Positions 59,988-60,665 of a stretch of DNA of 64,000 nucleotides are shown here, piece after piece. The notes under the pieces were generated by a model. The model was given only the letters and a program-made list of their open reading frames with translations, did no database searches and was not told the origin of the DNA. Origin of the DNA: Candidatus Kaiserbacteria bacterium (GTDB taxonomy: Bacteria; Patescibacteriota; Minisyncoccia; Phycocordibacterales; UBA918); NCBI GenBank assembly GCA_016699245.1, contig CP064968.1:576317-640316 (forward strand). The letters run 5' to 3'. The translations under genes and the position numbers were made by a program. The stretch's first letter is position 1, and each line of letters opens with the position of its first letter.

Positions 59988-60665
59988 TTATGACCGCATT
60001 TTTACAAATTTATCAAAAACGAGCTTTTTTCGTCTCAAATACAATTTGTAGGATGTATTATACATAATTTCATAAATTTTCAAAGCATCTTTAATAGAAA
60101 GTGAAAGTCGGGCATAATTCCCTGTTTTTGAAGAATATAGACTACCCCTTAAGACACCTCGCTCTTTAAGTGAATCATGGAGTGATTTTAAGTACTCATA
60201 TGAGCCACTTGTGAATGATACTTGGATTGCCGTAAGAGCGGTCTTTCGATTTTTATGTACCATACCAACCCACACGTTGCCATCACCATCAAAATATCCT
60301 CTTACAAAATCTCCAAAATATTTTTCAGGTACAACAGGTAACTCCATCCGTTTAGTCTTATTGGGAAATAACCCGAGAGTGCCAAGATCAGTAAACCACT
60401 CTTTACTTCCAATCTGAATCCTGTGTACACATCCCGTGGAACTCAATCGAGGAGAAATTTTATGCGCAGACTTCATACATCTCTTCATAGAGACCAGTAA
60501 TGACTTATCTGCCGTATATATCGCAACATAATGATTTCCTCTTTTCGTCTGTACGATATTACCATCCGCATATAAAAATCCAAGTATATACGCCATGTCA
60601 GATGACCATGTCTTGAAAAAGTTTTTGTCATAGATCAATGGTATTGGCATACAACCATAATACAA
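59988..60665 (-). CDS. Free-standing double-motif LAGLIDADG homing endonuclease
   Basis: LGFLYADGNI is the first LAGLIDADG motif and RGYFDGDGNV the second, about 100 aa apart. Confidence 0.7.
   Translation of the reverse strand: MYYGCMPIPLIYDKNFFKTWSSDMAYILGFLYADGNIVQTKRGNHYVAIYTADKSLLVSMKRCMKSAHKISPRLSSTGCVHRIQIGSKEWFTDLGTLGLFPNKTKRMELPVVPEKYFGDFVRGYFDGDGNVWVGMVHKNRKTALTAIQVSFTSGSYEYLKSLHDSLKERGVLRGSLYSSKTGNYARLSLSIKDALKIYEIMYNTSYKLYLRRKKLVFDKFVKMRS

Follow-up and report, generated by a model that had tools for sequence, protein, structure and literature searches.

A probable mobile, free-standing LAGLIDADG homing endonuclease gene at the tRNA-Asp locus of a Kaiserbacteria genome

An open reading frame (ORF) at 59988..60665 on the minus strand of a 64,000-nt stretch of a Candidatus Kaiserbacteria bacterium genome (assembly GCA_016699245.1, contig CP064968.1, positions 576,317 to 640,316 of the forward strand; this whole stretch is hereafter the window) is likely to be an active or very recently active free-standing homing endonuclease gene (HEG) coding for a monomeric LAGLIDADG enzyme. 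We read it as a selfish, mobile gene that would target tRNA-Asp and against which its carriers would be immune through an intron or an indel in that tRNA gene. LAGLIDADG homing endonucleases characteristically make site-specific double-strand cuts in targets of 14-40 bp, leaving 4-nt 3′ overhangs. An earlier note on this DNA had described the gene as double-motif and free-standing within a tRNA cluster; its motifs, its Pfam scores and the lack of any intron, intein or rRNA context bear this description out. The gene is also intact and, as the note had supposed, has links to tRNA genes and to group I introns. Our comparisons draw on about 170 related loci (numbered L001 onwards).

Results

Sequence, fold and selective constraint of the window protein

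Counted from TTG 60665, as in the mechanical list of open reading frames, the ORF comprises 225 amino acids. The earlier note had adopted this figure for a stand-alone ORF; the gene does stand alone, but its start is more likely ATG 60650 (MPIPLIY..., 220 amino acids), because almost all homologs are about 220 amino acids long and begin with MPI. The stop codon TAA lies at 59990-59988, and the final codons, ATG CGG TCA TAA, include GCGGTCA (59997-59991), a relic duplicate of the 5′ acceptor strand of tRNA-Asp.

The protein contains two LAGLIDADG motifs, LGFLYADGN and VRGYFDGDGN, each ending in a catalytic acidic residue, and matches the Pfam families LAGLIDADG_3 (PF14528, 38.9 bits for a cut-off of 22.5) and LAGLIDADG_1 (PF00961, 24.5 bits for a cut-off of 23.1). 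Across 29 aligned family members (mean column identity 65%), the catalytic aspartates D29 and D123 are invariant, as are many further positions, and the window copy retains every family-invariant residue. An AlphaFold2 model of the window protein (pLDDT 91.7, pTM 0.89) displays a double alpha-beta-beta-alpha-beta-beta-alpha fold, and together with a Foldseek search it revealed the pseudo-dimeric arrangement with a beta-sheet DNA saddle that is typical of monomeric LAGLIDADG enzymes. The top Foldseek matches in the PDB were I-Tsp061I, I-AniI and I-DmoI (probability 1.00, TM 0.55-0.69), with the bI3 maturase also near, and the protein matches 2dch by sequence with an E-value of 5.6e-7. Comparison with L001, the closest syntenic relative (85% amino acid identity), gave a ratio of nonsynonymous to synonymous substitution rates (dN/dS) of 0.08. 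Since this ratio is low, the catalytic aspartates are kept and the fold model is confident, we judge the window copy to be functional: it is under strong purifying selection and is no relic.

This gene is the only LAGLIDADG gene of the window. The earlier note had proposed to look for a degenerate group I core beside it; the search found no Rfam group I intron core around the ORF at E≤1 (56500-64000), and Pfam detected no intein splicing domain in the ORF. In more than 80 loci the gene is bounded by a promoter-like module on one side and by the tRNA-Asp 5′ end on the other; it is thus encoded neither within an intron nor within an intein. Pfam likewise detected no helix-turn-helix (HTH) domain in the window protein, and we excluded a domesticated regulator of the WhiA type, in which degenerate LAGLIDADG domains are joined to a C-terminal HTH and which its lineage conserves universally, because the protein lacks an HTH, its catalytic residues are intact and the distribution of the gene is patchy (see below).

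The gene family has a fixed address at tRNA-Asp

A search of 5.8 billion proteins recovered 1,251 relatives at 57-94% identity, nearly all of them 200-235 amino acids long. Most are unnamed metagenome proteins, and the named ones come from Paceibacterota/Parcubacteria. A look-up of the exact window protein among assemblies gave no record. Five contigs with homologs all carried an NTP-transferase gene, tRNA-Met(CAT), the LAGLIDADG gene and tRNA-Asp in this order, with prfB-ftsE-ftsX-pyrG farther on. Scanning one genome per GTDB species, we found a relative in at least 501 genomes; among the matches listed, the named carriers were all Paceibacteria (Kaiser-, Taylor-, Nomura-, Vogel-, Campbell-, Zambryski-, Sung- and Moranbacteria). 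For the best 80 of these at least 501 genome loci, which were chosen for having the gene and share 42-74% identity with it, we examined the genomic context. All 80 lie at the tRNA-Asp site, with the tRNA-Asp 5′ end abutting or overlapping the end of the ORF, and about 70 of the 80 have tRNA-Met(CAT) upstream on the same strand. The HEG occupies one fixed site, the 5′ leader of tRNA-Asp(GUC), downstream of tRNA-Met(CAT). Its stop codon falls within tRNA-Asp in 75 of about 84 distinct loci and coincides with U8-A9-G10 of the tRNA in 53 of them (...ATG CGG TCG TAG CTC...). Because of this overlap, and because of an intron in tRNA-Asp (see below), tRNA-Asp is often missed by tRNA finders; the LAGLIDADG gene itself is usually labelled "hypothetical" or "intein-encoded endonuclease" in genomes of the Candidate Phyla Radiation (CPR). 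The window is a derived exception to the family layout, in which an inserted 66-nt element uncouples the HEG from tRNA-Asp. This element contains a promoter-like TTTCCA-16-TATAAT (59979->59952) that could drive tRNA-Asp.

Patchy presence at a single site

As the loci above had been chosen for having the gene, we also drew an unbiased sample anchored on the neighbouring NTP-transferase (alignment A2, metagenome scan), which yielded about 45 informative loci. A full HEG was present in 6-7 of them and a C-terminal remnant abutting tRNA-Asp in 7, while 18 had an empty tRNA-Met-to-tRNA-Asp spacer of 47-413 nt and 12-13 lacked the gene and were rearranged. On the NTP-transferase clustering, loci in the full, remnant and empty states were interleaved, and they were mixed even within clusters of ≥85% identity. 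Such presence/absence polymorphism at one homologous site, accompanied by degenerate copies, is what is expected of a mobile HEG. Identity between LAGLIDADG genes was nearly uncorrelated with that between their neighbours (Spearman 0.12): L010 and L016 share 88% identity in the NTP-transferase and 61% in the LAGLIDADG protein, whereas the window and L001 share 77% and 85%, respectively. Invasion, decay and loss at one site, an incongruent history and strong purifying selection on intact copies together form the life cycle of a homing endonuclease.

In about a dozen loci without the LAGLIDADG gene, tRNA-Asp is inverted relative to tRNA-Met (L104, L106, L114, L121, L130, L135, L137, L141, L145, L154 and L163). 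The tRNA-Met/tRNA-Asp locus is a rearrangement hotspot.

A predicted 22-bp target in tRNA-Asp

Three independent patterns, namely an intron in tRNA-Asp, changes in its D-loop and a look-alike sequence upstream of the HEG, converge on the same 22 bp of tRNA-Asp, and for this reason we assign the target to this segment. The predicted target is probably an asymmetric site extending from GGTTAG in the D-loop over eight unspecified nucleotides to CCTGTCAC in the anticodon loop (GGTTAG-N8-CCTGTCAC). An asymmetric site of 22 bp suits a monomeric LAGLIDADG enzyme.

The site was perfect in 20 of the 23 distinct tRNA-Asp sequences from HEG-less loci and in 4 of the 5 from remnant loci (24/28 together), whereas only 1 of the 39 distinct intronless tRNA-Asp sequences from full-HEG loci had kept it. 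All altered alleles differ in the left half-site or in the spacing: they carry an extra T or C after GGTTAG, read GGCTAG, GGTCTAG, GGTAG or CGGTAG, or have a different D-arm type. L142, the sole carrier whose site is perfect, no longer has the canonical start codon in its HEG (ATGCC to AAGGC) and lacks an invariant proline. In the window, tRNA-Asp reads GGTTAG, an additional C at 59898, AGCACCCG and CCTGTCAC (59904-59882), so that the half-sites are spaced by 9 nt instead of 8; we predict this extra C to be an immunity change.

While 45 loci have the HEG beside an intronless tRNA-Asp, 33 other HEG-bearing loci contain an intron of about 215 nt in tRNA-Asp, inserted after CCTGT (CCTGT/CAC) between anticodon nucleotides 35 and 36. 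These introns match Rfam group I models with 44-53 bits; the last nucleotide is U in the 5′ exon and G in the intron. The canonical D-arm is kept in 32 of the 33 intron-bearing carriers, and a single clear HEG-less locus, L168, has the intron. In six neighbour-gene clusters of mixed state, the full copy is accompanied by an intron or an altered D-loop and the empty or remnant relative by an intact site, with L142 as the sole departure. This association of intact targets with HEG-less loci and of disrupted ones with carriers is correlative, and we infer the site itself.

Introns in tRNA genes are common in this lineage. Group I introns (Rfam 65-76 bits) also interrupt another tRNA(CAT) upstream of the NTP-transferase genes in L097 (3108-3489), L168 (3661-3946) and L007 (3785-4009).

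A target look-alike over the HEG promoter

In most carriers the HEG start is preceded by a module of the form GGTTAG-N8-CCTGTCAC-G-nGGTATAAT-N6-7-[A/G]TGCC. It repeats the 14 specified bases and the 8-nt spacing of the tRNA-Asp site, with the 8-nt centre replaced by a TATAAT-like box. The look-alike occurs with ≤2 mismatches in 38 of 94 loci and with ≤4 in 64 of 94, and in most well-matching copies it ends 17 nt before the start codon. The window copy (Table 1) is possibly an operator. The promoter consensus of the family is GGTATAAT-N6-7-[A/G]TGCC and, since its -10 box stands only 6-7 nt before the start codon, the HEG mRNA is predicted to be leaderless. I-TevI is known to repress its own gene through an operator resembling its homing site. 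As in I-TevI, the target-like sequence of the HEG overlaps its own promoter; the enzyme belongs to another family than I-TevI, and its binding to the look-alike and repression of the gene are predicted.

The spacers of empty sites (L118, L119, L159, L160, L157, L128, L129 and L098) contain a conserved promoter, ATATTGCCC-N17-TATATACT, about 10 nt before the tRNA-Asp +1; those genomes therefore transcribe tRNA-Asp apart from tRNA-Met. The likeness of this tRNA-Asp promoter (GTGTATATACT) to the HEG promoter (GTGTATAATACT) could reflect homology or the mere -10 consensus.

Proposed mode of homing

We propose that the enzyme would recognize the 22-bp site and cut the tRNA-Asp alleles of relatives lacking the HEG. 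Recombinational repair from a carrier genome would then co-convert the HEG, which is reached some 10-20 bp (its 3′ end) or, by another estimate, 20-30 bp upstream of the site, and the intron where one is present, in a form of intronless homing. Carriers would escape self-cleavage by means of the group I intron or of a D-loop change, which in the window would be the one extra C that lengthens the spacing. The HEG would be transcribed from the promoter immediately upstream as a leaderless mRNA, and the target look-alike over this promoter may let the protein repress its own gene, by analogy with I-TevI. Because the HEG overlaps tRNA-Asp, the two would ancestrally have been co-transcribed and then separated by RNase P, an arrangement that the 66-nt insertion would have uncoupled in the window. 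More tentatively, and as a picture that we hold to be possible and short of probable, there may be a three-way contest over tRNA-Asp across a CPR class, in which a leader-sited HEG cuts the D-loop-to-anticodon segment, represses itself via a promoter decoy and is expressed from a leaderless mRNA with a tRNA-derived stop codon.

Several observations weigh against this reading of the gene as a mobile, tRNA-Asp-targeting HEG. As regards mobility, near-identical HEG copies in divergent backgrounds were not seen among the loci compared, so that recent transfer is only presumed, and the incongruence test used one neighbouring gene, which has a paralog. As regards the target, the site was deduced from natural variation alone, and the D-arm contrast could be partly phylogenetic, as the HEG-bearing loci are taxonomically broader than the HEG-less ones. 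In a lineage whose D-loop is short (CAACGGTAGAGC), intron-bearing and intronless alleles have identical exons; 12 intronless tRNA-Asp sequences from carriers are a single base off the site (GGCTAG, GGTTAA), and GGTTAA also occurs in three HEG-less loci; and the intron is inserted close to an end of the proposed site and not at its centre. As regards the promoter region, the window look-alike has 3 mismatches, and over the whole window the motif at ≤3 mismatches gave 3 matches for 3.4 expected, so that this copy is significant only by its position and by the conservation of the module across the family. In addition, a simple sigma-70 scan called no promoter upstream of the window ORF.

Alternative explanations

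The alternative that survives best, though we consider it improbable, also takes the gene to be a mobile HEG and places its recognition site in the tRNA-Met/tRNA-Asp spacer or at the leader/acceptor junction, where the site would be broken by the insertion of the gene itself; the D-loop changes and the intron would then be unrelated or be repair scars. Classical HEGs do reside within their own target, the insertion point on the tRNA-Asp side is precise, and empty sites share a conserved promoter-containing spacer. This explanation nevertheless leaves unaccounted for the loss of GGTTAG-N8-CCTGTCAC in 38 of the 39 intronless carrier sequences against its retention in 24 of 28 others, the canonical D-arm of the intron-bearing alleles and the bipartite motif upstream of the HEG.

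We also regard as unlikely, and rank next, that the protein is a LAGLIDADG maturase or RNA chaperone, with or without nuclease activity, serving tRNA group I introns such as that of tRNA-Asp in relatives and perhaps the interruption of a tRNA-Thr gene 2 kb away in the window. The modelled structure resembles the bifunctional I-AniI and the bI3 maturase as closely as it does pure endonucleases, and there is a strong association between the gene and the tRNA-Asp intron. On the other hand, both catalytic aspartates are invariant, the 45 carriers beside an intronless tRNA-Asp have no such intron there to splice, L168 has the intron without the adjacent gene, and patchy presence with decaying copies in close relatives is unlike a required splicing factor; the D-loop changes would, moreover, be left unexplained.

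That Paceibacteria have instead domesticated the gene, inherit it vertically and use it for a cellular function linked to the tRNA operon seems to us very unlikely. We had earlier entertained this view because all loci chosen by homology shared the same synteny, which indeed extends over all 80 best genome matches down to 42% identity, and high conservation together with strong purifying selection would agree with it. Those 80 loci were, however, selected for presence of the gene. We rejected a fixed gene when the neighbour-anchored sample proved to consist mostly of empty or decayed sites, that is, when most close relatives had no gene or mere remnants, and the divergence of the gene is incongruent with that of its neighbour.

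Least probable of all is a decaying, pseudogene-like relic of an endonuclease that an intron once encoded: some relatives do hold decaying copies, and insertions in the window have separated the ORF from tRNA-Asp and degraded the upstream motif, but the full-length frame, the retention of all family-invariant residues, the dN/dS of 0.08 and the absence of any ribozyme around the ORF speak against both the relic of an intron that lost its ribozyme, as the earlier note had proposed, and the pseudogene that it had named as a possible refutation.

Copied tRNA ends are independent of the HEG

The earlier note was right that the tRNA genes on either side of the ORF, tRNA-Met(CAT) and tRNA-Asp(GTC), have their ends copied into repeats, which form a 155-nt and a 76-nt array (Table 1). 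Each 155-nt unit opens with the last 23 nt of tRNA-Met, and the window copies are in tandem and 100% identical. A unit is built from both acceptor-stem strands and the T-stem of tRNA-Met (GTCGACGG...GAGGGAACGA-insert-TCGTTCCCTCCCGTCGACA), with a hairpin, a variable insert and then a terminator-like hairpin. Members of this 140-155-nt family are also found downstream of tRNA-Met in L095, L166, L109, L123, L125, L099, L120 and L143. They may be tRNA-like small RNAs or elements resembling miniature inverted-repeat transposable elements, and they are independent of the LAGLIDADG gene.

Downstream of tRNA-Asp, the 76-nt repeats adjoin a 21-nt copy of the tRNA-Asp 3′ end (59502-59522). The core of this family, CCCGGCCTCACTCATGGCAAAGCC..., is bounded by copies of the tRNA-Asp acceptor stem and also occurs in L118, L120, L150, L144 and L112. 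A third element, of 66-70 nt, sits exactly at the tRNA-Asp 5′ end in the window and in L001 and L102 (two copies each), L097, L101, L075, L146 and L091; it starts with a copy of the acceptor 5′ strand able to pair with a downstream CnCCGC, has a TATAAT box and is present both with and without the HEG.

The three families are present in many HEG-less loci (L095, L166, L114, L123, L125, L092, L101 and L146), and most HEG-carrying loci are without them. We therefore rejected the HEG as the maker of the tRNA-end repeats, a role for which the earlier note had considered it. The three families are independent small elements of the lineage.

Organization of the locus

Read along the coding strand, two NTP-transferase genes are followed by tRNA-Met(CAT), the two 155-nt repeat units, the ORF, a 66-nt spacer and tRNA-Asp(GTC) (Table 1). 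Beyond tRNA-Asp come the two 76-nt repeats with the copy of the tRNA-Asp 3′ end, a short 23S-like fragment and an ORF of unknown kind, and further downstream tRNA-Thr(CGT) on the opposite strand, an interrupted tRNA-Thr(GGT), then prfB, ftsE, ftsX and pyrG.

Table 1. Coordinates of the HEG and of associated features in the window
Feature	Position	Strand	Remarks
LAGLIDADG homing endonuclease coding sequence	59988..60650	-	220 amino acids from ATG 60650; mechanical ORF extends to TTG 60665
Promoter-proximal segment GTTG TATTAT GGTTGT	60651..60666	-	-10-like TATTAT (60662-60657) ends 6 nt before ATG
Target look-alike (candidate operator)	60667..60688	-	GTGTAG-AGCAATAT-ACTGTCAC; 3 mismatches; ends 17 nt before the start codon
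tRNA-Met-end element array	60700..61080	-	Two perfect 155-nt units (60771-61080) and a partial third; outside the HEG
tRNA-Met(CAT)	61084-61158	-	Upstream of the ORF; conserved cassette neighbour
Two NTP-transferase genes	62664-61273	coding strand of the HEG	Upstream of tRNA-Met
66-nt inserted element	59922..59987	-	Separates the ORF from tRNA-Asp in the window lineage
tRNA-Asp(GTC)	59846-59921	-	Downstream of the ORF; intronless
tRNA-Asp downstream array	59502..59802	-	Perfect 76-nt repeats at 59579-59654 and 59727-59802; outside the HEG

The interrupted tRNA-Thr about 2 kb from the ORF, which the earlier note had reported, was recovered by ARAGORN with the intron option as tRNA-Thr(GGT) at 57698-57975 on the minus strand, its anticodon loop interrupted by a 191-nt sequence. 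This sequence matched no Rfam family even at E≤10, and we accordingly did not class it as a group I intron. Interrupted tRNA-Thr(GGT) genes of like form are present in L097 and L168.

Within 59186-59361 on the minus strand, about 140-175 nt match the 5′ end of 23S rRNA (Rfam LSU positions 46-180, 52.9 bits for a gathering score of 50), and the same stretch also matches as 5.8S-like (E = 0.05); Rfam found no other rRNA match in the window. Among related loci, L119 alone showed a weak similarity to it (77% over 86 nt). The stretch may be a pseudogene or an orphan piece of rRNA. Although it lies 0.7 kb from the HEG, we rejected the idea that the HEG belongs to a broken or insertion-containing rRNA gene, as only about 140 nt are matched, tRNA-Asp intervenes and relatives have no rRNA at the locus.

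A tract of about 270 nt (63030-63300) consists nearly entirely of long C and G homopolymer runs, is flanked by tRNA-like 3′-end sequences (GCGGGGCCCGGAATCGAACCGGGG) and yields spurious poly-Pro/Gly ORFs on both strands. It looks like an assembly or sequencing artefact or an extreme low-complexity insertion.

Discussion

Free-standing HEGs, with or without a collaborating intron, are already known from phages. SegB of phage T4 is a free-standing HEG of the GIY-YIG family that lies in a tRNA cluster and recognizes the T-psi-C motif of tRNA genes (PMC2330249). Like SegB and other free-standing HEGs of T-even phages, the gene described here is a stand-alone ORF between tRNA genes, has a predicted promoter of its own and is patchy among relatives (PMC2330249); it would likewise target a conserved tRNA-gene motif in HEG-less relatives and spread with flanking tRNA DNA. 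In contrast to SegB, it is of the LAGLIDADG and not the GIY-YIG type, and resides in a cellular CPR bacterium instead of a phage; its predicted target extends from the D-loop to the anticodon of tRNA-Asp and is not the T-psi-C motif, and its ORF overlaps the target tRNA gene.

Collaborative or trans homing has also been described (PMC3984707, PMC2790892). Here, too, the HEG adjoins its predicted target gene and the presence of the intron is associated with that of the HEG, an arrangement found in the 33 intron-bearing carrier loci. The present case differs in that the target would be a bacterial tRNA gene, the enzyme is of the LAGLIDADG type, and about half of the carriers, including the window, are intronless and have D-loop changes instead. 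As its tRNA-Asp is intronless, the window copy would work like the intronless-homing variant.

LAGLIDADG genes have been reported inside rRNA insertions of CPR bacteria (PMC11270868, PMC8172020), and group I introns are on record in CPR tRNAs (PMC8172020). The window protein shares its fold and catalytic motifs with the LAGLIDADG proteins of CPR rRNA insertions and group I introns (PMC11270868) and with I-Tsp061I and I-DmoI, the archaeal rRNA-intron enzyme I-Tsp061I being its best solved match, and LAGLIDADG genes are numerous in hosts of the same phylum. Unlike these enzymes, it is encoded outside any rRNA gene, intron or intein, has only about 20% identity to the solved enzymes and belongs to a family of its own comprising more than 1,200 sequence clusters, whose 80 examined genome loci all lie at the tRNA-Asp site. 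A homing endonuclease aimed at the anticodon region of a bacterial tRNA gene with a group I intron has the same type of target as that predicted here. It differs from the window HEG in having its gene within the intron and in its fold family, PD-(D/E)XK. To our knowledge, bacterial tRNA group I introns are generally devoid of endonuclease genes.

In the literature that we searched, we found no prior report of a free-standing LAGLIDADG family associated with tRNA-Asp. What would be new is the combination: a LAGLIDADG enzyme in a cellular host of the CPR, aimed at one specific tRNA gene within which its ORF ends, with recurrent resistance alleles in the D-loop and a look-alike of the target lying over the promoter. 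From the natural variation of this family one can read a predicted recognition site of 22 bp, alleles predicted to be resistant and a candidate operator. Meganuclease engineering would profit from a compact LAGLIDADG scaffold of 220 amino acids that comes in hundreds of natural variants, together with matched variants of the target. If the proposed reading of the gene is true, an adjacent HEG acting in trans would provide a concrete route of mobility for tRNA introns in cellular genomes, outside phages.

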